DNA of 32,000 nt, taken from positions 420,001 through 452,000 of the forward strand of contig NC_021219.1 of the NCBI RefSeq assembly GCF_000392435.1. The letters run 5' to 3'. A program made the position numbers and the translations under genes. The DNA is from Candidatus Saccharimonas aalborgensis (GTDB taxonomy: Bacteria > Patescibacteriota > Saccharimonadia > Saccharimonadales > Saccharimonadaceae). Below are positions 6,782-23,660 of this stretch, one piece after another. Positions within the stretch are counted from its first letter, which is position 1; the number at the start of each line of letters is the position of its first letter. Under the pieces are notes generated by a model, which had not been told where the DNA came from, ran no database searches, and was given only the letters and a program-made list of their open reading frames with translations.

Positions 6782-9700
6782 ATGCCAGTAACTATCTTTC
6801 GTGCGTTAAGCCGATCACTATTGGGCGCCCTTTTTGTGGGCGTGTTTGTCGTATCTGGAATTATAGGAGTGGCACCTCAGACAGCGCATGCCGCAACCGG
6901 TATTAACCAACAAATGAACTTTCAAGGCCGACTGCTCAACGCTCAGGGTGCAGTAGTCCCTGACGGCTACTACAATATCCAGTTCAAGATCTACCAGGAT
7001 GGTACCGGTACCACCGCAGGAAACCCTGGTGGAACCCTCAAGTGGACAGAGGATTGGCTCAACACCGCTGGAAACGGTGTCCAGGTCAAAAATGGCTTTA
7101 TGTCAGTACAGCTTGGAACAATCAACCCCTTTGGTAGTCAAGTCGACTGGAACCAAGACACGCTGTGGCTGAGCGTGAATATCGGCACTACCAACACTAC
7201 CTGTACGCCATTTAGCTCCTGTGGTGGCGATGGAGAAATGGTACCAATGAAGCGTCTTGCATCTGTTGCCTACGCGATGAATGCCGGCTCGCTCGGCGGC
7301 CTAACAGCGAGCGGATTTATCCAAAATACCACAGTACCTCAATCGGCTAATATCGCTGTGCAAAGCGCAAGTGCAAGCAGTGTAGGTGCAATGGTACAAG
7401 GTGCATCATCTCAATCCGTAGACCTCTTTCGGCTCCAAGATAGTAACGGTAACGTCAATGCCGCCTTCAATAACAACGGTGATCAGCTCACGCTCGGCAG
7501 AATTAGTACTACCGGCACCGTCACGCAAGGAAAACTAGTATTTAATGATGGGACGCTTGATGGCTATGGGCTCACAATTCAGTCTGGCACGCAGACGGGC
7601 AACTATACCCTGACCCTCCCGAGTCTGGCTGGTAATGCAACGGTATGTACGAGTAATTCAACTGCCACCTCTGCCTGTACAAACTTTATCCAAAACCAGA
7701 CGACGCTACAGGCCGCCTCAAACTTTCACATCTCTGGCACTGGTCAGGCCGATACCGCTATCATCACACCAGCTATTCGACCAACAAGTGACTCCACCAC
7801 AGCCCTTAAAGTACAAAATGCTGCTGGTACCACAGACATCATGACAATAGACTCGACAAATAACCGTGTCGGTATAGCCTTAGCAAATGGCGAAACCGCA
7901 TCATATGACCTCAGTTTCGGCGGTGGAACTGATCGGATCATCGGAGTCAATACAAACACAAGTACAGGGGTAGGACGCTCCCTAACGTTACAAGGTGGTG
8001 GTGGTAACGGCACTAATCAAGCCGGTGGTGCGGTTAACATTATCGGTGGTGCACCAACAGGTTCAGGGGTGCGAGGTGCGGTTAACCTCCAAACAACCGT
8101 CAATGGTGATGTCAATATAGGAAATGCCGGGAGCGCTGCTAACACCGTCACACTGACTGCCGGTGCAACCAATGGTATTAAGCTTGTTTCGGACAAGATA
8201 ATGGTTGGTAATGCCACCACCACAACCACTATCCAAAAAACTACACAAACCACTGCCGGCCAAGCTGGGCAGCAGCTCACCATCCAGGGTGCTACCAGCG
8301 GTACAACTGGAGTGGGTGGTGCAGTGCTCATCCAGGGTGGTAATAGCGCAACTGGTACGACTGGCGGCAACCTCACTCTGGCCGGTGGAACCGGTACCAC
8401 ATCAAACGGTCTTGTTATACTCAATACGTCAGCCTTCCAGACGATCGCCAATGATGCCAACTGTTTCCCAAGTGGCACTGAATCAACCTCATCATCTGGG
8501 TGTACTGTCGCTCAGACATCCGTCAACAACTATGCTTCTGTCATCGTCGGGTTTACCCAAGATGGACAAACAGCAACCCTCCCAGATCCAAGTATTGCAA
8601 CTGCTGGACGCGTCGTTTACGTGACTGCATCAAATCTCACAAAGGACTTTACACTGAGTGTCAATGGTGGTGGCCAAGGCAATCAGATTGCAATGCGTAA
8701 GAATACAACCGCAACGATGATCTGGAATGGCGCTGATTGGACGGCTGCGGGTGCATCGAGCTCGACTACCCTCCAGGCTGCCTACGACAACACACTCCAG
8801 AGCGCCGGTGGCGCCGAACTCGTCGTCAGTAAAACCAGTGCGACCAATGGTCTGACCATTCGTGATAGCTCTACCAACCCTGTGAATGGTACGCTCCTCA
8901 GCGTCCAGACAAAAAGCGCGGCAGGCTTGCTCCAGGTCAACAGCAATGTCACTGAATATGCCAGCAATGCCGGTGCAGAGACTGCCGGTGCCAGTGCCAC
9001 AACCTTCCCGGCCAGCACTTGGAGTAGCACCGGTACTGCCACGGTCACCCGCCAAAATGTCGCCGGTAACTATATCGCCACTGGTCAAGGTTCTGTATCG
9101 ATTGCCGCAACCGCCGCTAACAGTGGTGCCAAAAACCAACTCATCAATAGCGGTGGTAGTGCCGCCGCCTTGACAGCCAACACTACCTACAACGTCAGCT
9201 TCACTACTCGTCTCACCAGCGGTTCAAGTACGTTTACTGACCTCAATGTGCAATATTCGGCTGATGGCAATACCACCCTCCTCACTGCTTGTGGTGCCAC
9301 CTCAGCTGTCAACACAAGTATCTGGACCAAGGTCAACTGTACCTTCACGACGCCCGCTAGTGGTATCACCAGCGGCAACGCGATCCTCATTCGCCAAACT
9401 GCCAGTGCCACCCGCACCTTCTACGTCGACAACCTCAGTGTCACGATTGCTGCCGATTACAACTTTGCCACCGACGGCAGTGTGACTGATGCTGGCAACT
9501 ACGCGACAAACTGGCCGACTGCCGGACAAGGTACAGTTGCGAGCTCACGTATTATCACTGACGGTAACGACGCCAGCGACAGCGCCCAAGCCAACGTGAC
9601 GGCCGGTGCAGCCAACGCCGGTATCCGTAATAAACTATCGTCAAATCCGCTCAGTTCAACGCTTTACCGCGTCACCGTCTATGGCAAGCTCATCTCTGGT

Positions 9701-10681
9701 GCTGCGTTTAACGACTTCAAGATACGCTATAGTTATCTTGGCAGCACCTCAACCACCGCTGGCGACTACGTGGACTGTGTCGACTATAACGCGCAGACGC
9801 TGGTTACGACCGGCTGGACGAAAGTAACGTGTTACATCCAAACTGATGCCAATGCCGCGACCAACCCTTACGTCTACTTCGTCGAAGCGACTTCGGGCGT
9901 ACGAACCTTCGCCGTTGACTCGTTTAGCATGACACTGGCGAGCATCACCACACCAAATGTTCAGGTCGGTGGCGGTATTAACGGTGGCCCAACCACACTC
10001 TTCACACTCGACAAAGGGGCAAGCGCACCAATCGCCAGCAACAACGATGCGCTGCTCGGCAGCATGTACTACGACACCACGCTTGGAAAGCTGCAGTGCT
10101 ACGAGGCTGATGGTTGGGGTGCCTGTGGTTCCAGCCCAGACAACATTGTCACTATCTCTCCAGAGTACACAAATGCGGTGCTCCACGGAACTGGTATCGG
10201 GACAATGACCAGCGACATCTGTTCAAGCACCCTCCAAATCAACGACGGGGTCAGTGGACGGCCCAGCGTCTGTGGGACAAATGAAACGTACAACTTCTAC
10301 AAATGGACTAGTCCTCAGGCCACAACTCAAACCTATAGTATCTATGTGACCTACCAGTTACCGAGTACCTTCAAGAGCTTCAACTCAGGTCAAGCCTCAC
10401 TCATGGCTCGTACCGATAACGGAAGCAGTGGCGGCTCATCAAGCGTTCAGTACCAAATATATCGAAATAACGGCAGCGGTCTTTTACCCTGTGGTTCAGC
10501 AGTCAGCGTTTCAAGTGGCACACAAACTTCATGGCTGACCGGTACGGCAACCGGTGCCGCCGACCCATCGACCTGTGGCTTTGCGCCTGGCAACAGTATC
10601 GTCTTCAAGATCGACATGACAACCAGTAAAAACGCGAACGCCTACGTTGGTAACCTCAACTTTGCCTTTAGCAACAAGTAG
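6782..10681 (+). CDS. Giant secreted surface protein/adhesin (1299 aa) with two tandem CBM-like jelly-roll modules
   Basis: The signal peptide is ..GVFVVSGIIGVAPQTAHA/AT. The N-terminal module reads INQQMNFQGRLLNAQGAVVPDGYYNIQFKIYQ...LKWTEDW...VQVKNGFMSVQLG. A Gly/Thr/Asn-rich beta-helix-like middle follows (GGAVNIIGGAP.., GGAVLIQGGNS..). Two repeats end in SIWTKVNCTF...TRTFYVDNLSVT and TGWTKVTCYI...VRTFAVDSFSMT, a pattern typical of carbohydrate-binding modules. All antisense and off-frame ORFs inside this gene look spurious. Confidence 0.9.
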   Translation: MPVTIFRALSRSLLGALFVGVFVVSGIIGVAPQTAHAATGINQQMNFQGRLLNAQGAVVPDGYYNIQFKIYQDGTGTTAGNPGGTLKWTEDWLNTAGNGVQVKNGFMSVQLGTINPFGSQVDWNQDTLWLSVNIGTTNTTCTPFSSCGGDGEMVPMKRLASVAYAMNAGSLGGLTASGFIQNTTVPQSANIAVQSASASSVGAMVQGASSQSVDLFRLQDSNGNVNAAFNNNGDQLTLGRISTTGTVTQGKLVFNDGTLDGYGLTIQSGTQTGNYTLTLPSLAGNATVCTSNSTATSACTNFIQNQTTLQAASNFHISGTGQADTAIITPAIRPTSDSTTALKVQNAAGTTDIMTIDSTNNRVGIALANGETASYDLSFGGGTDRIIGVNTNTSTGVGRSLTLQGGGGNGTNQAGGAVNIIGGAPTGSGVRGAVNLQTTVNGDVNIGNAGSAANTVTLTAGATNGIKLVSDKIMVGNATTTTTIQKTTQTTAGQAGQQLTIQGATSGTTGVGGAVLIQGGNSATGTTGGNLTLAGGTGTTSNGLVILNTSAFQTIANDANCFPSGTESTSSSGCTVAQTSVNNYASVIVGFTQDGQTATLPDPSIATAGRVVYVTASNLTKDFTLSVNGGGQGNQIAMRKNTTATMIWNGADWTAAGASSSTTLQAAYDNTLQSAGGAELVVSKTSATNGLTIRDSSTNPVNGTLLSVQTKSAAGLLQVNSNVTEYASNAGAETAGASATTFPASTWSSTGTATVTRQNVAGNYIATGQGSVSIAATAANSGAKNQLINSGGSAAALTANTTYNVSFTTRLTSGSSTFTDLNVQYSADGNTTLLTACGATSAVNTSIWTKVNCTFTTPASGITSGNAILIRQTASATRTFYVDNLSVTIAADYNFATDGSVTDAGNYATNWPTAGQGTVASSRIITDGNDASDSAQANVTAGAANAGIRNKLSSNPLSSTLYRVTVYGKLISGAAFNDFKIRYSYLGSTSTTAGDYVDCVDYNAQTLVTTGWTKVTCYIQTDANAATNPYVYFVEATSGVRTFAVDSFSMTLASITTPNVQVGGGINGGPTTLFTLDKGASAPIASNNDALLGSMYYDTTLGKLQCYEADGWGACGSSPDNIVTISPEYTNAVLHGTGIGTMTSDICSSTLQINDGVSGRPSVCGTNETYNFYKWTSPQATTQTYSIYVTYQLPSTFKSFNSGQASLMARTDNGSSGGSSSVQYQIYRNNGSGLLPCGSAVSVSSGTQTSWLTGTATGAADPSTCGFAPGNSIVFKIDMTTSKNANAYVGNLNFAFSNK

Positions 10682-18185: not shown

Positions 18186-19376
18186 CTAGTGATAAGGATC
18201 GAGGGTAGCTTGCACTTTTTGTTCTTTGCCGTCTCGTATAATGCTAAGTTCAACCACGTCACCGACTGCCCGCCTCCCGACGAGAGAGGTGAGGCTATGT
18301 GTCTCATCAATCGATATGCCGTCAACTTTCGTGATAACATCTTTTTCTTTTAGGCCGGCCTTTTCAGCTGGACTACCGCCGATGATCGCCGACCCGCCGT
18401 GACTCGACAGTAAATAAGCACCGCGTTTTACCGACAATGTATAGGTCGACGCCACTTCATCAGTCAACGCAACATATCGCACGCCGAGATACGGCCGTTC
18501 AAACTTACCTGTTTTTATGACACTGGCTATCAGCCCCTTTACGTCGTCGATAGGGATAGCAAATCCAATATTTTCTGCTGAGCCGCTCGCTACTGCCGTG
18601 TTGATACCGATTACTTCACTATTCATGTTAACGAGCGGACCACCCGAATTACCAGAGTTAATTGCTGCGTCAGTTTGCAACAAATTTTGAAGCAATTCGC
18701 TCTGCGATCCACCTTCATTTCCGGCCTCAATACTCCGACCGTACCCAGACAAAATACCCGCCGTGACCGTATTTTGGAACTGGCCCAGTGCGTTACCTAT
18801 CGCCACTACTTTGTCACCCACCTGCAGACTCGACGAACTACCAAGTGTGGCAGGATGGAGTGATTTTCCTTTTGTGTTGTTGATCTTTAGGATGGCAATA
18901 TCGAGTGAATCGTCTGAACCTGTTCTTCCCACCACTGTGACATCATCGAGAACACTCCCATCTGATAGTGTAATCGACACCTTGGTGGCATCAGCGTCAA
19001 CCACATGACGGTTTGTCACAACATACCCATTATCGCTGACGATGATCCCCGTCCCTGCACTTTGCTGTGAATAGGCAATATCACGGCCAAAAAAATCATT
19101 CTGTGTTGCGCGGCTTGTCACGTTGATTGAGACCACGCTCTCGCCGACAGTCTTTGCAAGCGCACTGATATGTTGACCTTCTTCGACGGTGACTTGTCTG
19201 GTAAGCTGGCTGCTCGTGGCTGGTACAAATAAACGCGTCGCCACAATCCCGCCACCAAACCCGCAGAGCGTACTGACACCAATGATGACAATTGTATAGA
19301 GCAGTGGAAACCTGTGAGGATGACGATGACGTCTGGGACCAGCGGTTGATTGTGAAGAAAGTGGAGAGTTGTCCAT
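18186..19376 (-). CDS. htrA: HtrA/DegP-family (S1C) trypsin-like serine protease with a C-terminal PDZ domain, membrane-anchored
   Basis: The protease core contains GYVVTNRHVV (His), DIAILKI (Asp) and NSGNSGGPLVN (Ser). The PDZ segment reads GAYLL....SPAEKAGLKEKDVITKVDG. I chose ATG 19376 as the start: AGGTGA lies 7 nt upstream, and this ATG is just past the upstream TGA at 19384-19386. The track start at 19439 would overlap the upstream gene by 56 nt. Confidence 0.9.
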   Translation of the reverse strand: MDNSPLSSQSTAGPRRHRHPHRFPLLYTIVIIGVSTLCGFGGGIVATRLFVPATSSQLTRQVTVEEGQHISALAKTVGESVVSINVTSRATQNDFFGRDIAYSQQSAGTGIIVSDNGYVVTNRHVVDADATKVSITLSDGSVLDDVTVVGRTGSDDSLDIAILKINNTKGKSLHPATLGSSSSLQVGDKVVAIGNALGQFQNTVTAGILSGYGRSIEAGNEGGSQSELLQNLLQTDAAINSGNSGGPLVNMNSEVIGINTAVASGSAENIGFAIPIDDVKGLIASVIKTGKFERPYLGVRYVALTDEVASTYTLSVKRGAYLLSSHGGSAIIGGSPAEKAGLKEKDVITKVDGISIDETHSLTSLVGRRAVGDVVELSIIRDGKEQKVQATLDPYH

Positions 19377-19383
19377 CACATTA

Positions 19384-20520
19384 TCACCTACGCTTAGTGT
19401 CATGTTTTTTTGTATGCGTTTCTTCAATCGGCTCTTCATCTATGCTGGTCGGTATGTCATCAAGGAGGACTTTTCCGAGGGTATAGACATAGACAATGTC
19501 ATCGCGGACAATCAAGAATCTTGTTGCTTCATTTCCTGCTGGCGTCGCAACGATCGGTACTTTTAGTTCCTCCTCTAGATTGAGCATATCGTCGAAAGTC
19601 TGAACTGGTACCATGGTCTTACCTGCAATTGCAGCAGGCTGGCTCGCGCGGATGATGATACCATCGTGGTACCGATAGATTTTTTCGAGCTCTCGCTGGT
19701 AGGCTGATTTAAATATCTGTCTGCGCATGCCATACACTATCGCCATGAGACCAAACGCCGTTAGAATGCCCATGATAATTCGCTCATAATTTTTTGTCAT
19801 ATCTTGCCCTGACTTCATCGCCTGTGTGACAACTTGTTTCTTGTCTTCTTTTTCAAACTTGGTCGCAAATCGATAAATTGGCTGGTCCAGTGGCATCGTG
19901 ACCGTCGCGACTCTGATGTCGTCGAACCGTGTTCCATCAATCGAACCAGAAACGTGAACTGTAAAGGCAATTGTAACTTCCGAAGTAGCCGGCAGGGAAA
20001 GTGCTTGCTTCATTTGATTGACCATTTTTCGATAGTCTGCAAATGGTATCGATACCGAAGGGTCAAATGTAAGGTCAGAAGTTGTCACCACAGACGTGAC
20101 TGGCTTAATAAGCGAGTACTCTTTTGACCAGACGGTCGATATGTCCTTGCTGTCAGCTCCAAACATATACTGATAACGAACCGTTGCCGTCGCACCATAC
20201 AGTGTCGTCAATTCTACCGGCCGAGCGCTATGATACTTATAGTGAAGTGTTGCCTTTACCTCGTCAGTCAGGTCTGCGACATAGGCGGTGTTATTTGCAG
20301 CTGGTCCCTTATCATAAAAACTACTATTAAAATAGCTGACTCCCGTATCTACTGCCTGATTTACGGTGTAGTCGTAGCCGGTAGGGCTCACGGGAGTTGC
20401 GTCACTAGTATGCCCTAGGTCATAAAACAGCAACGCCGCACAAACAAGTAGCAACATCCCCAATAATACAAATCCAAATGACCGCTGAGAATGTTCTGGA
20501 TTTGCTATATCAAGTGCCAT
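19384..20520 (-). CDS. Two-TM membrane protein, DUF5305-like, the last gene of the SipW/TasA-type operon
   Basis: 378-aa ORF with AAGGGA 5 nt upstream of the ATG. There is an N-terminal TM helix (FGFVLLGMLLLVCAALLFY) and a large extracellular domain. A second TM helix (IIMGILTAFGLMAIVYGM) is followed by a cytoplasmic tail (..YRYHDGIIIRAS....VQTFDDMLNLEEELKVPIV....FLIVRDDIVYVYTLG). The topology and the position next to a SipW-like peptidase match my recollection of the DUF5305 family. No search was run. Confidence 0.6.
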   Translation of the reverse strand: MALDIANPEHSQRSFGFVLLGMLLLVCAALLFYDLGHTSDATPVSPTGYDYTVNQAVDTGVSYFNSSFYDKGPAANNTAYVADLTDEVKATLHYKYHSARPVELTTLYGATATVRYQYMFGADSKDISTVWSKEYSLIKPVTSVVTTSDLTFDPSVSIPFADYRKMVNQMKQALSLPATSEVTIAFTVHVSGSIDGTRFDDIRVATVTMPLDQPIYRFATKFEKEDKKQVVTQAMKSGQDMTKNYERIIMGILTAFGLMAIVYGMRRQIFKSAYQRELEKIYRYHDGIIIRASQPAAIAGKTMVPVQTFDDMLNLEEELKVPIVATPAGNEATRFLIVRDDIVYVYTLGKVLLDDIPTSIDEEPIEETHTKKHDTKRR

Positions 20521-20535: not shown

Positions 20536-21699
20536 TTACTTTGCAAATTCCTTGAGCCAGACACTTGGGTATCCGACATAAGGTACCTGAGCACGTACAA
20601 TGCCGACGATCTGATCTGCCTGCACCGGCATGTCGGGGCTCGGGCTATTGTCGCCTTGCGTCAGAAAAACGCGTTTCCCTGATCCATCCGACGTGAAGTC
20701 GATCGCAATCACGCGGTGGGTCGTTGAGTGGCCCGTTGCTTCATATTGTACGATATCTCCTACCTGGACGTCCATCGGATTCGCCTTTTGCACAATCACA
20801 ACTGCTCCTCTCTCATAAACTGGTTTCATGCTATTACTCATGATTACTTGGGGCCGATAACTAAACGCTCCCGTCATGAAACTAATAAGCGCAATCATTA
20901 CTATGACGAAAGCAATGTTTTGAGTGTCACGCGCCCGTTGATGATGCCGGGTCGGCTCGGCTATATCATGTCGGTTTCGATCAATGGCGATATACACGCC
21001 AACCGCCAGTGCCGTCCAGGCAATACCCGTCATATACCAATCATACTTAGGGATGATAGGGGGCACAAACATCACGGCAATAACTCCCAGTCGATACGTA
21101 AGCTGCGAACCAAGTCCCGCCGTAAACGCGAGATACGTCAAAAGGACGCTGCTCGCAAATGCAGGTACGAGGCTAGACACGGTTATTTTTGTGAAATCCG
21201 CGATTGAGGCTGCATTATCAAACTGGGAAAAGCTGATTTGTTGAACGGAAAATAACGTGCCAATGATAACACCAAGCCACACAACGTTGCGTCTCCCCCC
21301 TAATAGCATAATTCCGTGTCGTACATACTCTAAGGCGGCAGCCGTAACACCAAATGTGGCAAGATTTATCACAACCGTCTGCCAGTTAACTGCTACTGCA
21401 TTATTTACATAGGTGACCGCTAAACCAGACAAGAAGTAGAGAACAAACCAAACCGATAATACCGAGCTAATGATGAGGCTTTTCTCTGCCTTATGGCGCA
21501 CTCGATCATGTTGTCCGCGGGTCACTTGACGAGTAATGAGTGCTGTGGCCGTAACCAATATCGGCTGCAACACACTGAGCGAAATCGATGCGCTAATTAT
21601 TCCGACGCGCTCGAGTATAACCGGAAGCAAAATAGCGATCAGCGCCAATAGGCACAAATACCATACTACAACCTTGATGGTCCGAGCCTTCCGAAACAT
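20536..21699 (-). CDS. Fusion protein: polytopic membrane domain (about 280 aa) plus a C-terminal ER/archaeal-type (SipW-like, S26B) signal peptidase I domain
   Basis: The C-terminal ~105 aa read IMSNSMKPVYERGAVVIVQK...GDIVQYE....THRVIAI......FLTQGDNSPSPD. These give the Ser box (SxSMxP), the His box (HRV) and the GDN..D box of SipW/Sec11-type peptidases. The N-terminal part has roughly eight or nine hydrophobic segments by eye. The ATG overlaps the upstream TAA by 1 nt (TAATG). Confidence 0.85.
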   Translation of the reverse strand: MFRKARTIKVVVWYLCLLALIAILLPVILERVGIISASISLSVLQPILVTATALITRQVTRGQHDRVRHKAEKSLIISSVLSVWFVLYFLSGLAVTYVNNAVAVNWQTVVINLATFGVTAAALEYVRHGIMLLGGRRNVVWLGVIIGTLFSVQQISFSQFDNAASIADFTKITVSSLVPAFASSVLLTYLAFTAGLGSQLTYRLGVIAVMFVPPIIPKYDWYMTGIAWTALAVGVYIAIDRNRHDIAEPTRHHQRARDTQNIAFVIVMIALISFMTGAFSYRPQVIMSNSMKPVYERGAVVIVQKANPMDVQVGDIVQYEATGHSTTHRVIAIDFTSDGSGKRVFLTQGDNSPSPDMPVQADQIVGIVRAQVPYVGYPSVWLKEFAK

Positions 21700-22511
21700 T
21701 AGGCTTTACCCTTCACCGCTGCTCCGGTCGTTGTCCATGTTGTCATTGTAGAAGTGACTGAGGTCGAAAATGAGTATTGTGACCCGTTAGCGATTGGTAT
21801 GGCCGCCCCAGTATACGTCAGTACCGTTGATGTGCAGGTGTACGTTACTCCAGCCGGCACAGTCGATGTGCAAGTCTTTGTCGTTGGAATTGTGACCCGC
21901 CAACCACTGATCGGCTGACCCGAATTATTCGTGATTACTACCGACAGTGGAAACGCACCACCGCTTTTTGGCGACGCGGTGGCGGCCACAGTAAGCCCAG
22001 GAATTGCCACATACGCAGTTGAGTACGTCGCAGAGATATTAACGTTTTGGGGCGTGTAGTATGCGACAGTACTTGTAAATCTAATCGAGTTAGAGGTGTT
22101 ATTTATGGTGCTTGATGCACCGGCAGCGATAGTGACTGTGCGAGTAATCGTTACGACATGAGTCGTATTATTGATAGTACACGCCACGGTAGTCGGACAA
22201 GTGATCGCTGTAGTATCGTTTGGCACAGTAAATTGTACTTGCCAAGCAGTGATTGAGGTCACACCATTATTTTTTATGACAAAGGGGTTAAGCTTGTAGG
22301 TATATACGCCGGCTGCAAACGTTGCTGTCTTGGTATAGGTAACGGTTGTATAATTATTTGAAATGTAAGCGACACTCGATACAGCGGTATCAACCGAAAG
22401 CTGTTGGCTGAACAAAGCATAGGTTGTGCTCACTACCAATAGAGGCATCGCGAGGAGGAGCCCCATTTGCCGAATTGCCGCTCTGTATTTTTCTCGACGT
22501 CGCTTCCCCAC
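21699..22511 (-). CDS. Larger secreted subunit with the same SipW-type N-terminus and two Thr/Val-rich beta modules (possible minor or tip subunit)
   Basis: GTG 22511 is preceded by GGAA about 10 nt upstream. An alternative ATG lies 15 codons in. The N-terminus is KRRREKYRAAIRQMGLLLAMPLLVVSTTYALFSQQLSV. Its YA-x-F-S-x-x-L motif is shared with the two smaller subunits (YAAFSQNLTI, YASFATTLTV). Two modules contain ..ITAWQVQFTVP.. and ..ISGWRVTIP.. motifs. Confidence 0.8.
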   Translation of the reverse strand: MGKRRREKYRAAIRQMGLLLAMPLLVVSTTYALFSQQLSVDTAVSSVAYISNNYTTVTYTKTATFAAGVYTYKLNPFVIKNNGVTSITAWQVQFTVPNDTTAITCPTTVACTINNTTHVVTITRTVTIAAGASSTINNTSNSIRFTSTVAYYTPQNVNISATYSTAYVAIPGLTVAATASPKSGGAFPLSVVITNNSGQPISGWRVTIPTTKTCTSTVPAGVTYTCTSTVLTYTGAAIPIANGSQYSFSTSVTSTMTTWTTTGAAVKGKA

Positions 22512-22525
22512 CGCTACTGATTCCG

Positions 22526-23023
22526 TTAATTTTGAACGTAATTAAAGGTAATCGTCGCTGCTTTGTTGGCGCCGCTCGGGTTTGTCGAAGCACTAGCAGC
22601 CCATGTCACACTGATGGTAGCGGTTGTGGAAGCGTTGGGAGCCAAGGTATCGTTGACCGCTACACCACTGATTGCATACGTCAGGTAGGTTGGCGCGCCG
22701 CTGTTGATGGCGGTCAGGTTGGTGATAGTGCTCAACTTTGCGTTGATGTTGCCCTTGTTTTTGATGACGACTTGGTATGACGACGTTGCGCCAGGGTACG
22801 CTAGGTCGACATTAAACGTCGCTGAGGTAGCCGTAAATGATGGTGTACTGGCATGATCGGTGGCACCGACCTGTCCGGTGGGCGTGATACTGATGATTTC
22901 TACTGCCCAGTTACCAGTAGCAGTACCGGTACCATTGACAGTGAGTGTTGTCGCAAACGATGCGTACGCGATCGACGCCGCCGAGACGAGCACGATTGCG
23001 AGTGATATAATTTTGTTTCTCAA
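22526..23023 (-). CDS. TasA-like / SipW-dependent-signal secreted subunit, paralogue 2
   Basis: I chose TTG 23023 as the start. It gives (M)RNKIISLAIVLVSAASIAYASF.., colinear with paralogue 1 (MRNKIVAAALVLVAVASVAYAAF..), and has the same AAAGGAA Shine-Dalgarno box 9 nt upstream. Shared blocks are GNW.VEIISIT, TSATFNVDLAYPGAT, KNKGNINAK and VTW. The track start at 23098 adds 25 non-homologous residues that run through a promoter. Confidence 0.85.
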   Translation of the reverse strand: MRNKIISLAIVLVSAASIAYASFATTLTVNGTGTATGNWAVEIISITPTGQVGATDHASTPSFTATSATFNVDLAYPGATSSYQVVIKNKGNINAKLSTITNLTAINSGAPTYLTYAISGVAVNDTLAPNASTTATISVTWAASASTNPSGANKAATITFNYVQN

Positions 23024-23066
23024 CGAGATGTTTCCTTTTGTATATTGTGTCCTATACCTATCTAGA

Positions 23067-23095
23067 ATTATACTCCTCTCCTCTCCTTGAGACAA
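23067..23095 (-). promoter_or_regulatory. Sigma70-type promoter for the paralogue-2 gene, internal to the operon
   Basis: The minus strand reads TTGTCT (plus 23095-23090), a 17-nt spacer, then a consensus TATAAT (plus 23072-23067). This sits 43 nt upstream of the TTG start at 23023. Confidence 0.5.
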
Positions 23096-23134
23096 CAAAC
23101 AAACCGTGTCCTCTCATCAGTCGAGAGGACACGG
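23095..23134 (-). terminator. Intrinsic terminator or attenuator directly after the first TasA-like gene
   Basis: Perfect 12-bp stem: CCGTGTCCTCTC (23104-23115) and GAGAGGACACGG (23123-23134) with a 7-nt loop. On the minus strand the hairpin is followed by TTTGTTTGT (23103-23095). It lies 22 nt after the TAA of the 23157-23660 gene. Confidence 0.65.
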
Positions 23135-23156
23135 GAAACGTAGCTATACGTTGTTT

Positions 23157-23660
23157 TTAGGTGTTCTGAGCAAAGCCGTAGGTGATTGTTGCGTTCTTTG
23201 TCACGGTCGTTACATTAGTAGTCGCGGTGCCAAGCCAGGTGACGGTAACTGTAGCAGTCACCGTGCTACCGGGGGTCAATGGATCATCAACCGCTGGACC
23301 GGTAACGGTAAACTTAACATCGGCAGGATCTGCTGCATTTGTTGCGACCAAATCAGGAATGGAGCTCACCTTTGCGTTGATATTGCCCTTGTTTTTCATG
23401 ACGACATCATACGTAGCCGTCGCGCCAGGGTAGGCCAAGTCAACGTTGAAAGTAGCTGATGTTGCATTAAATGAAGGGGCAACGTTATTGTGATCACTTT
23501 CGCCTGTACCCGAGGTCTTTGTAATACTTATGATCTCGACGCTCCAGTTACCAGATGCGTTTCCCGTACCATTGATCGTAAGGTTTTGTGAAAATGCTGC
23601 ATACGCCACGGACGCAACGGCGACGAGGACGAGTGCGGCAGCGACAATTTTGTTTCTCAT
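23157..23660 (-). CDS. TasA-like / SipW-dependent-signal secreted subunit, paralogue 1 (likely the major subunit)
   Basis: 167-aa ORF with AAAGGAA 9-10 nt upstream of the ATG. The signal-like N-terminus is MRNKIVAAALVLVAVASVAYA/AFSQNLTINGTG. A beta-rich body follows (..TSATFNVDLAYPGATATYDVVMKNKGNINAKV..). It is the first gene of the operon and is followed by a strong hairpin. The antisense ORFs at 23106-23459 and 23182-23433 were rejected. Confidence 0.9.
   Translation of the reverse strand: MRNKIVAAALVLVAVASVAYAAFSQNLTINGTGNASGNWSVEIISITKTSGTGESDHNNVAPSFNATSATFNVDLAYPGATATYDVVMKNKGNINAKVSSIPDLVATNAADPADVKFTVTGPAVDDPLTPGSTVTATVTVTWLGTATTNVTTVTKNATITYGFAQNT

Follow-up and report, generated by a model that had tools for sequence, protein, structure and literature searches.

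Several surface fibres of bacteria and archaea are served by a dedicated signal peptidase. Substrates with Phe at P2′ are cleaved poorly by LepB, and TasA therefore depends on SipW (PMC10269814), which explains why a dedicated Sec11-type enzyme is needed; in the haloarchaeal tafi system, TafD is genetically required for the processing of TafA and is paired with the DUF5305 protein TafG (PMC11821415). For the AbpX loci of bacteria and archaea, the part of a preprint available to us gives one sentence to a dedicated type I signal peptidase (SPase I) with ten transmembrane (TM) helices rather than two, assigns DUF5305 to the peptidase as an accessory subunit that recalls the eukaryotic complex, and ties both, independently of our work, to fibre loci of the TasA superfamily (10.64898/2026.01.04.697558). 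In Staphylococcus aureus, SpbR, a CAAX homologue with degenerate motifs, binds SpsB, a signal peptidase, at a ratio of 1:1 by way of the TM helix of SpsB and one of its outer loops, and inhibits cleavage (PMC12260438). Here we examine a gene at positions 20536 to 21699 (minus strand) of a 32,000-nucleotide stretch of the Candidatus Saccharimonas aalborgensis genome (assembly GCF_000392435.1, contig NC_021219.1, positions 420,001 to 452,000; hereafter the window), in which a CPBP/CAAX-like membrane protein and a signal peptidase are naturally joined in one polypeptide; a complex between these two types of protein was recently demonstrated in S. aureus. We consider it moderately probable that the product is the dedicated leader peptidase of a surface-fibre cassette, with its CPBP-fold N-terminal domain (N-domain) acting as a non-catalytic membrane platform.

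Architecture and distribution of the fused protein

The open reading frame (ORF) is intact, starts with ATG and encodes 387 amino acids. A first-pass annotation, made from the sequence alone, had described it as a peptidase fused to a polytopic domain and translationally coupled to the upstream gene through TAATG; both statements hold, as the frame is open, the fusion is conserved, and the overlap with the stop codon of the upstream 270-amino-acid subunit gene is real. The two motifs quoted there were also found, TRQVTRGQHDRVRHKAEK at amino acids 56-73 and AALEYVRHG at amino acids 121-129. We modelled the whole protein with AlphaFold2 (AF2) from an alignment of 130 family sequences (mean predicted local distance difference test, pLDDT, 95; predicted template modelling score, pTM, 0.87), obtaining nine long TM helices at residues 10-32, 37-60, 70-95, 106-134, 139-154, 166-193, 196-211, 221-241 and 251-276. 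The eight or nine hydrophobic segments noted earlier correspond to eight extra helices and the anchor of the peptidase; the catalytic domain, earlier placed at amino acids 283-387, is indeed C-terminal, and its start moves to about amino acid 251 with the anchor included, or to about 277 for the globular part. Judged from the distribution of charged residues, the N-terminus, the DRVRHK loop (amino acids 56-73), the segment G-R136-R137-N and the basic linker (amino acids 241-250) are cytoplasmic, which by the positive-inside rule would give an N-domain that crosses the membrane eight times and has both termini in the cytoplasm, and a catalytic domain outside. The features of the gene are as follows.

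20536..21699, minus strand: whole gene, encoding a candidate CPBP-fold domain fused to a Sec11/SipW-type SPase I (hidden Markov model (HMM) matches, AF2 model, homologues of the same length).
20962..21699, minus strand: N-terminal domain with eight predicted TM helices (amino acids 1-246), putative CPBP/Rce1 (Abi) fold with degenerate motifs (structure alignment to 6u0o_A and 4cad; Foldseek).
21319..21330, minus strand: E124-Y-V-R127 in TM4, the sole strongly conserved charged pair of the N-domain and a possible remnant of CPBP motif 1 (EExxxR) (conservation in 130 sequences).
21037..21063, minus strand: predicted extracytoplasmic loop between TM7 and TM8 (loop 7-8), P213-P-I-I-P217-K-Y-D220-W221, more conserved than any other stretch of the N-domain (conservation; weak covariation).
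20950..20979, minus strand: basic, predicted cytoplasmic linker (amino acids 241-250, RNRHDIAEPT...) from TM8 to the peptidase anchor (the lowest-confidence part of the model, pLDDT 77-81).
20872..20949, minus strand: TM9 (amino acids 251-276), the peptidase's own membrane anchor (SEC11C aligns from model residue 248; modelled helix 251-276).
20539..20871, minus strand: predicted extracytoplasmic catalytic domain (amino acids 277-387) (SEC11C/A profile match; pairwise alignment).
20830-20832, 20716-20718 and 20632-20652, minus strand: catalytic-domain residues Ser290, His328, and Asp350 with Asp356, respectively.

The identity of the C-terminal half as a SipW/Sec11-type enzyme, already proposed in the first pass, is supported by several lines of evidence. 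TIGR02228 (archaeal/endoplasmic reticulum (ER)-type signal peptidase I, MEROPS S26B) matched amino acids 264-383 with 87.5 bits against a cut-off of 51.85, PF10502 matched the fusion protein with 23.2 against 22.9, and a profile of the 130-member family matched human SEC11C and SEC11A in a search of the PDB at E values of 6e-24 and 1e-23. Pairwise alignment with human SEC11A placed SNS290M on SGSM, TH328RV on VHRV and GD350N...D356 on GDN...DD; S290, M291, H328, R329, G349, D350 and D356 were invariant in all 130 family sequences, and the structure of SEC11C superposed on model residues 248-386 with a Z-score of 11.9. With its catalytic residues aligned and invariant, the C-terminal portion of about 125 amino acids is predicted to be a catalytically intact Ser-His-Asp signal peptidase of the Sec11/SipW type, anchored by TM9 and with its active site outside. 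An ordinary bacterial LepB is encoded elsewhere in the 1.01-Mb single-contig genome (C1:733251-733769), and the fused enzyme is therefore a second, specialised peptidase of this genome.

A survey of related genomes, which the first-pass annotation had recommended, showed that the fusion recurs in Saccharibacteria and in gut Bacilli, together with an operon of fibre subunits. Among 5.8 billion proteins we recovered 201 relatives, nearly all of them full-length (366-402 amino acids), labelled ‘signal peptidase I’ and derived from Saccharibacteria/Patescibacteria, and a second clade comprised 439 proteins from metagenome-assembled genomes (MAGs) of uncultured gut Bacilli and Oscillospiraceae (Bacillota). 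An exhaustive search with the N-domain alone against 1.8 billion cluster representatives returned 182 relatives with identities down to 20%, mostly 370-400 amino acids long; when 49 diverse relatives were examined, the S26 domain was detectable in 37 and a Pfam family on the N-domain in none. Apparent stand-alone N-domains of 233-237 amino acids came from contigs of 1.2-1.4 kb and had cluster mates of 378-380 amino acids; as these are contig-end fragments, there is no evidence of a split form, the ‘shorter’ length class not having been searched separately. Longer matches of 644-681 amino acids represented other arrangements. One metagenomic protein of 655 amino acids (P0256) carries CBM2 and CBM49, then the CPBP-fold domain and the peptidase in one ORF, which is probably a read-through at a TAATG-type junction of subunit and peptidase, or alternatively a true fusion of large subunit and peptidase. 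Of 100 further species in the genus, 10 carry the cassette, and a sample of 300 other Patescibacteria genomes, searched with the N-domain, yielded no copy of it; this patchy occurrence, together with its sharing with gut Bacilli, suggests that it has spread horizontally.

Fold and conserved residues of the N-terminal domain

The membrane domain had been reported in the first pass to carry no known function label, and the databases bear this out: its first ~260 residues matched no Pfam model (E values up to 10 gave noise only) and no NCBIfam model, a profile search of the PDB with the family matched the peptidase part and left the N-domain unmatched, and the ESM Atlas gave unnamed clusters at 0.89-0.90 and one ‘named’ match at 0.78, to be read as leads only. 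We then compared the whole model with 48,161 representative solved chains by a structure alignment independent of Foldseek (VIA-align). The top match was S. aureus SpdC from the SagB-SpdC complex (6u0o_A; Z 14.1, root-mean-square deviation 4.4, 229 of 248 residues, model residues 3-246) and the second the CAAX protease Rce1 (4cad; Z 11.9, 221 residues, model residues 8-245), followed among helical matches by the gamma-secretase subunit APH-1 (Z 7.8), with the remainder at or below 6.8. A repeat comparison gave Z-scores of 14.1 for SpdC and 12.5 for Rce1, and Foldseek recovered SpdC and Rce1 entries with probabilities of 1.00 and 0.99. APH-1 was reportedly placed in the same superfamily as CPBP/Rce1 by Pei and Grishin. 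Because SpdC and Rce1 exceed the other matches by 4-6 Z, span the whole domain in order and share one superfamily, we accept, with reservation, the eight-helix CPBP/Rce1 (CAAX protease, Abi) fold for the first 246 residues as modelled; to our knowledge, the fold of this domain has not been described previously. The vague resemblance to CPBP/CAAX proteins remarked on in the first pass is thus borne out at the level of fold, Foldseek included, and not at the level of sequence profiles, where comparison gave no family link. Ordinary CPBP genes (PF02517) number four in this genome, at G000:C1:912913-914008 and two further sites; two are arranged in tandem, and none lies near a peptidase gene.

Conservation was evaluated over the 130 family sequences, which come from two phyla. 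TM4 holds N112 (98%), E124 (98%) and R127 (99%), a buried cluster in the cytoplasmic half of the helix; further conserved polar positions are T188 and Y189 on TM6 and Y202 and R203 on TM7, and outer loop 7-8 contains P217 (100%), P214 (99%) and W221 (85%). No His is conserved in the N-domain, where a single column, in a cytoplasmic loop, reaches 25% His. Active CPBP enzymes carry the three motifs EExxxR, FxxxH and HxxxN/D (PMC12260438). The second and third are absent from the N-domain, in which TM5 of the saccharibacterial proteins has the form F150-x-x-x-Q154 (F150-S-V-Q-Q154), in line with the earlier remark that CPBP motifs beyond the first are not evident; E124-x-x-R127, a possible remnant of the first, differs from it in sequence by its single Glu and its spacing. 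With a partial motif 1 and motifs 2 and 3 lost, the N-domain resembles the degenerate S. aureus proteins SpdC, LnsB and SpbR. The motif segments of SpbR read HELYMR, FIYLD and QIVAI (PMC12260438), and by the order of the helices LEYVRH (TM4) and F150-S-V-Q-Q154 (TM5) would correspond to such segments. Without a conserved His, and keeping only Asn112, Glu124 and Arg127, the N-domain is most likely a pseudo-protease platform that is not catalytic.

The putative fibre cassette and its proposed mechanism

The fused gene belongs to a five-gene cassette that also encodes two subunits of ~165 amino acids, a subunit of 270 amino acids and a DUF5305 protein. The four neighbours are listed here with a slash at the predicted junction of leader and mature protein.

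19384..20520, minus strand: DUF5305 protein, 378 amino acids, proposed peptidase accessory subunit (PF17231, 89.6 bits); start 15 nucleotides past the peptidase stop.
21699..22511, minus strand: secreted subunit of 270 amino acids with extra beta modules, leader ...TTYA/LFSQQLSV; stop overlaps the peptidase start (TAATG).
22526..23023, minus strand: second small subunit, start revised to TTG 23023, 165 amino acids, MRNKIISLAIV...AYA/SFATTL (homologue alignment).
23157..23660, minus strand: first small subunit, 167 amino acids, MRNK...VAYA/AFSQNLTINGTG (beta-sandwich model).

The second small subunit was initially listed as an ORF of 190 amino acids (22526-23098, minus strand); its homologues align from amino acid 26 only, AAAGGA lies 8 nucleotides 5′ of TTG 23023, and this TTG is most likely the true start. 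The 270-amino-acid subunit has weak similarity to CBM_2 (E 6.8e-4), and its position is conserved in seven related genomes. The first small subunit is probably the major fibre subunit. Between the genes of the first and second subunits there is a GC-rich hairpin with a T-run behind it (23100-23140), immediately ahead of a TTGTCT...TATAAT-like promoter, an arrangement expected for overproduction of the first subunit. The residues A19, A21 and F23 do not vary among 45 subunit homologues and correspond to Ala at -3 and -1 and Phe at P2′; mature position 2 is thus an invariant Phe, and position 4 is Gln or Thr (AFSQ, SFAT and LFSQ here; consensus AFAQ). The modelled small subunit is a beta-sandwich (pLDDT 80; below 50 at residues 8-22, and 38-60 per 10-residue block to residue 40), which Foldseek matched to FimA with a probability of 0.99 and a TM-score of 0.36. 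Since the fold matches of the subunit are merely generic, its assignment to the TasA superfamily draws mainly on context.

This context is well conserved. The block of one or two ~165-amino-acid subunits, a ~270-amino-acid subunit, the fused peptidase and DUF5305 is kept in seven other genomes of the genus, in which the flanks differ, and 11 inspected loci share a cassette of one to seven small secreted subunits, sometimes a larger subunit, the peptidase and DUF5305. The one exception (L055, G349:C1:587000-603000; 7863-10203) has its peptidase split over two frames, lacks the subunit genes and retains an intact DUF5305 gene; it looks like a decaying cassette, as would be expected if the peptidase has no task once the subunits are lost. 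The DUF5305 gene is single-copy in the window genome and lies immediately 3′ of the fused peptidase in all 12 loci inspected. Four loci from gut Bacilli MAGs (L062, L063, L066 and L075) carry the same block with two to seven tandem subunits of ~185 amino acids, whose junction of leader and mature protein (...VGYA/AFAQQLTINGT) is closely similar to that of the first small subunit here. Downstream of these four loci are genes with prepilin-type N-termini (GFTLVELIAV...), so that fibre genes and type IV pilin-like genes adjoin. In the window, an HtrA/DegP-like ORF (18186-19439) shares 56 nucleotides (19384-19439) with the 3′ end of the DUF5305 gene, and its true start may lie further downstream; HtrA also follows DUF5305 in the closest genome (L056) and not in more distant ones.

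In the mechanism that we propose, the fused peptidase would remove the short ...A-x-A/x-F leaders from the subunits of its own cassette, and this would free the conserved N-terminal strand AFxQxLTINGTG for polymerisation of the subunits by donor-strand complementation. The N-domain would act in cis as a platform in the membrane without catalysis of its own, much like SpdC and SpbR of S. aureus, fixing the pose of the peptidase anchor and catalytic domain through TM3, TM8 and outer loops 3-4 and 7-8, and offering the leader an intramembrane docking or gating site, such that only the cognate subunits are cut, at the right place and time. The N112/E124/R127 cluster might bind the leader at its basic N-region (MRNK..., MESKHKN...), or its role might be purely structural. 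DUF5305 would be a second accessory subunit.

We also looked for covariation between the two halves by mean-field direct-coupling analysis (DCA) of 366 family sequences (effective number, Meff, 223), in which the signal was weak: half of the top inter-domain pairs were topologically implausible and lower ranks were noisy, so that we quote here only the three highest-ranked pairs along with those that join TM3 to TM9 in register. TM9 couples with TM3 more than with any other helix, and in register: at the inner ends E72 is linked to T250 and H253, and at the outer ends V95 is linked to S273 and A278. Between N-domain and peptidase the three top-scoring pairs, P213-Y319, D220-Y319 and A94-T327, all lie on the outer face beside the catalytic His328. 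This weak covariation would fit packing of the catalytic domain against TM3 at its outer end and against the outer loop PPIIPKYDW, and loop 7-8 probably contacts the peptidase domain.

Several observations weigh against this view of a CPBP-fold platform serving a TasA-type fibre. The homology of the N-domain with CPBP proteins is founded on predicted structure only, and helical bundles can reach Z-scores of ~13-14 through their arrangement alone. PF02517 has no match to the fusion even at an E value of 10, its HMM detects the four true CPBP genes of the same genome and not the fusion gene, and hhalign comparison of the N-domain with 22 CPBP proteins of the phylum gave probabilities below 1% (0.4%) in both global and local modes. 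The contacts between TM9 and the N-domain, and the placement of E124 and R127 relative to the Rce1 active site, are candidate assignments. The near-invariance of E124, R127 and N112 in two phyla exceeds the obvious need of a pure scaffold. Lastly, the fold of the subunit is only generically Ig-like, with a best Z of 6.9, and the archaeal bundling pilin AbpA (7ueg) was matched with a Z of 6.0 over 118 aligned residues.

The same conservation bears on whether the N-domain may itself be a protease. If it were a still active, non-canonical intramembrane protease, the fusion would be a two-protease machine, in which for example the outer site removes the leader and the CPBP-like site degrades it in the membrane, in the manner of a signal peptide peptidase, or makes a second cut in the substrate. 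The 98-99% conservation of E124, R127 and N112, all on TM4, would suit such an enzyme, as would the rank of the active CAAX protease Rce1 as second-best structural match; the catalytic EExxxR motif of Rce1 is said to sit on TM4 (Manolaridis, 2013), the same helix as E124 and R127. We nevertheless judge this quite unlikely, and with it the second intramembrane activity suggested in the first pass, given the lost histidines: active CPBPs need FxxxH and HxxxN/D, the spacing here is ExxR rather than EExxxR, SpdC, which is non-catalytic, is the best structural match, active CPBPs showed no profile similarity to the N-domain, and mutation of the equivalent H, E and R in SpbR had no effect (PMC12260438). 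The N-domain could instead inhibit or time the peptidase from within the same polypeptide, much as SpbR acts on SpsB, until relief comes from DUF5305, from the growing fibre or from the cognate leader. SpbR inhibits the cleavage of several SpsB substrates (PMC12260438), DUF5305 always follows the fusion directly, and the covariation places outer loops of the N-domain beside residues flanking the catalytic His; inhibition and positioning are not separated by any of these data. An inhibitor permanently fused to a dedicated enzyme would be an uneconomical design, however, and the peptidase here is of the ER/archaeal rather than the SpsB type, and we regard this alternative as unlikely.

An export conduit or polymerisation platform for the subunits, also raised in the first pass, is very improbable. 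The cassette has no other obvious assembly machine, which would leave room for such a role, but nothing was found in favour of a conduit: the fold matches CPBP proteins, which are not known as channels, the subunits bear ordinary Sec-type leaders, and related TasA/AbpX fibres, according to the accessible part of the preprint, polymerise without a dedicated pore (10.64898/2026.01.04.697558). The chance that the fusion is an artefact, produced by a frameshift or by the mis-joining of two genes, is negligible. The gene of the decaying locus is indeed split across two frames; against this stand more than 600 full-length homologues with the same length and order in independent assemblies of two phyla, the contig-end origin of the short N-domain matches, and the window genome itself, which is one closed contig, and we rejected the artefact that the first-pass annotation had named as what could undo its proposal. 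What remains of that proposal is thus a conserved fusion with a CPBP-like fold in a fibre-subunit operon, without the export conduit and the second enzymatic activity. Together, these comparisons leave the dedicated leader peptidase with a non-catalytic CPBP-fold platform as our preferred reading.

Significance and comparison with described systems

CPBP/Abi-type membrane proteins are very numerous in bacteria and their functions are mostly unknown; for one of them, SpbR, control of a signal peptidase was reported in 2025 (PMC12260438). A widespread natural fusion of a CPBP-fold domain with a signal peptidase provides independent, genome-level evidence that this pairing is functional and old, and a system in a single polypeptide is suited to studying the role of the CPBP-fold module. 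More broadly, type I signal peptidases of prokaryotes might in general have dead CPBP/CAAX-fold proteins as partners. The fusion and DUF5305 would then make up a prokaryotic equivalent of the signal peptidase complex of eukaryotes, with the CPBP module binding the leader in the membrane and setting substrate choice. We hold this wider proposal as doubtful; if true, the fusion would be a Rosetta stone for the CPBP/signal-peptidase pairing, and many orphan ‘Abi/CPBP’ genes would be predicted to act on signal peptidases. We found no paper joining the multi-TM SPase I of fibre loci to the SpbR-type partnership of CPBP protein and signal peptidase, and none on SipW or TasA-type fibres in Saccharibacteria. 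No earlier TasA/AbpX-type fibre cassette seems to have been recorded in that group. Saccharibacteria are episymbionts that must attach to host bacteria, and the fibre is therefore a candidate attachment or matrix structure.

The closest described loci are those of AbpX. As far as the accessible part of that preprint goes, their SPase I is likewise of the TIGR02228 type with about ten TM helices rather than one or two, and lies beside genes for small donor-strand subunits and a DUF5305 gene, in bacteria and archaea (10.64898/2026.01.04.697558); the window has the same arrangement, with a dedicated SPase I and a DUF5305 gene adjoining the subunit genes, and the subunits share an aromatic residue at mature position 2. 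This likeness was established from the published description. In contrast to that account, we find nine long TM helices rather than ten and propose a fold for the extra ones, which is left unnamed in the part of the preprint available, where Saccharibacteria are also not mentioned. The calcium site of AbpX combines an aromatic residue at position 2 with an acidic residue at position 4, whereas position 4 here is the non-acidic Gln or Thr, and calcium-triggered assembly may therefore not apply. The fusion belongs to a protein family that, on the evidence of the accessible text, has been mentioned once and barely described. The first-pass annotation held that its proposal would fall if the extension proved common and annotated with a known role; it is common and was mentioned in 2026, and as that mention, so far as accessible, assigns it no role, the finding is weakened and not refuted.

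Among fibre-linked enzymes with fewer helices, B. subtilis SipW (of the tapA-sipW-tasA operon) and haloarchaeal TafD are also dedicated ER/archaeal-type peptidases encoded in a fibre operon and needed for Phe-P2′ subunits, a role that the fused enzyme probably shares; SipW has two TM helices and no CPBP-like domain, and TafD instead combines four TM helices with an Ig-like domain at its C-terminus. The signal peptidase complex of eukaryotes (SEC11, SPC12, SPC22/23 and SPC25; 7P2P/7P2Q) contains the catalytic domain closest in both sequence and structure, and there too the catalytic subunit sits amid accessory TM helices; these are separate small subunits, however, and unrelated to the CPBP fold.

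For the N-domain, comparison is with CPBP-fold proteins. Rce1 of M. maripaludis (4CAD; PF02517, MEROPS M79/G5) shares the eight-TM fold over the whole domain, termini predicted to be cytoplasmic and a conserved Glu and Arg on TM4; it differs from the N-domain in the histidines of motifs 2 and 3, in EExxxR rather than ExxR, and in an HMM or profile match that the N-domain lacks. SpdC (LyrA; 6U0O), the best structural match, has the eight-helix CPBP fold without catalytic residues and serves as a scaffold in the membrane, where it binds an extracellular hydrolase by that enzyme's single TM helix; its partner is a glucosaminidase rather than a peptidase, the two are not fused, and aligned identity is 9%. 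A further parallel is SpbR-SpsB, in which a degenerate CAAX/CPBP-type polytopic protein is physically joined to a type I signal peptidase, in contact with its TM helix and outer loop, and alters which substrates are cut and when (PMC12260438); analogous contacts are predicted here. In S. aureus these are two separate proteins rather than one, SpsB is a bacterial Ser-Lys (LepB-type) enzyme rather than a Sec11/SipW-type (Ser-His-Asp) enzyme, SpbR uses TM5 and TM7 whereas our covariation points to TM3 and TM8, and the CAAX homology of SpbR, unlike that of the N-domain, is visible by HMM. What the two systems appear to share, judging from the modelled fold, is a CPBP fold without its catalytic motifs physically tied to a type I signal peptidase, in the window by covalent fusion.

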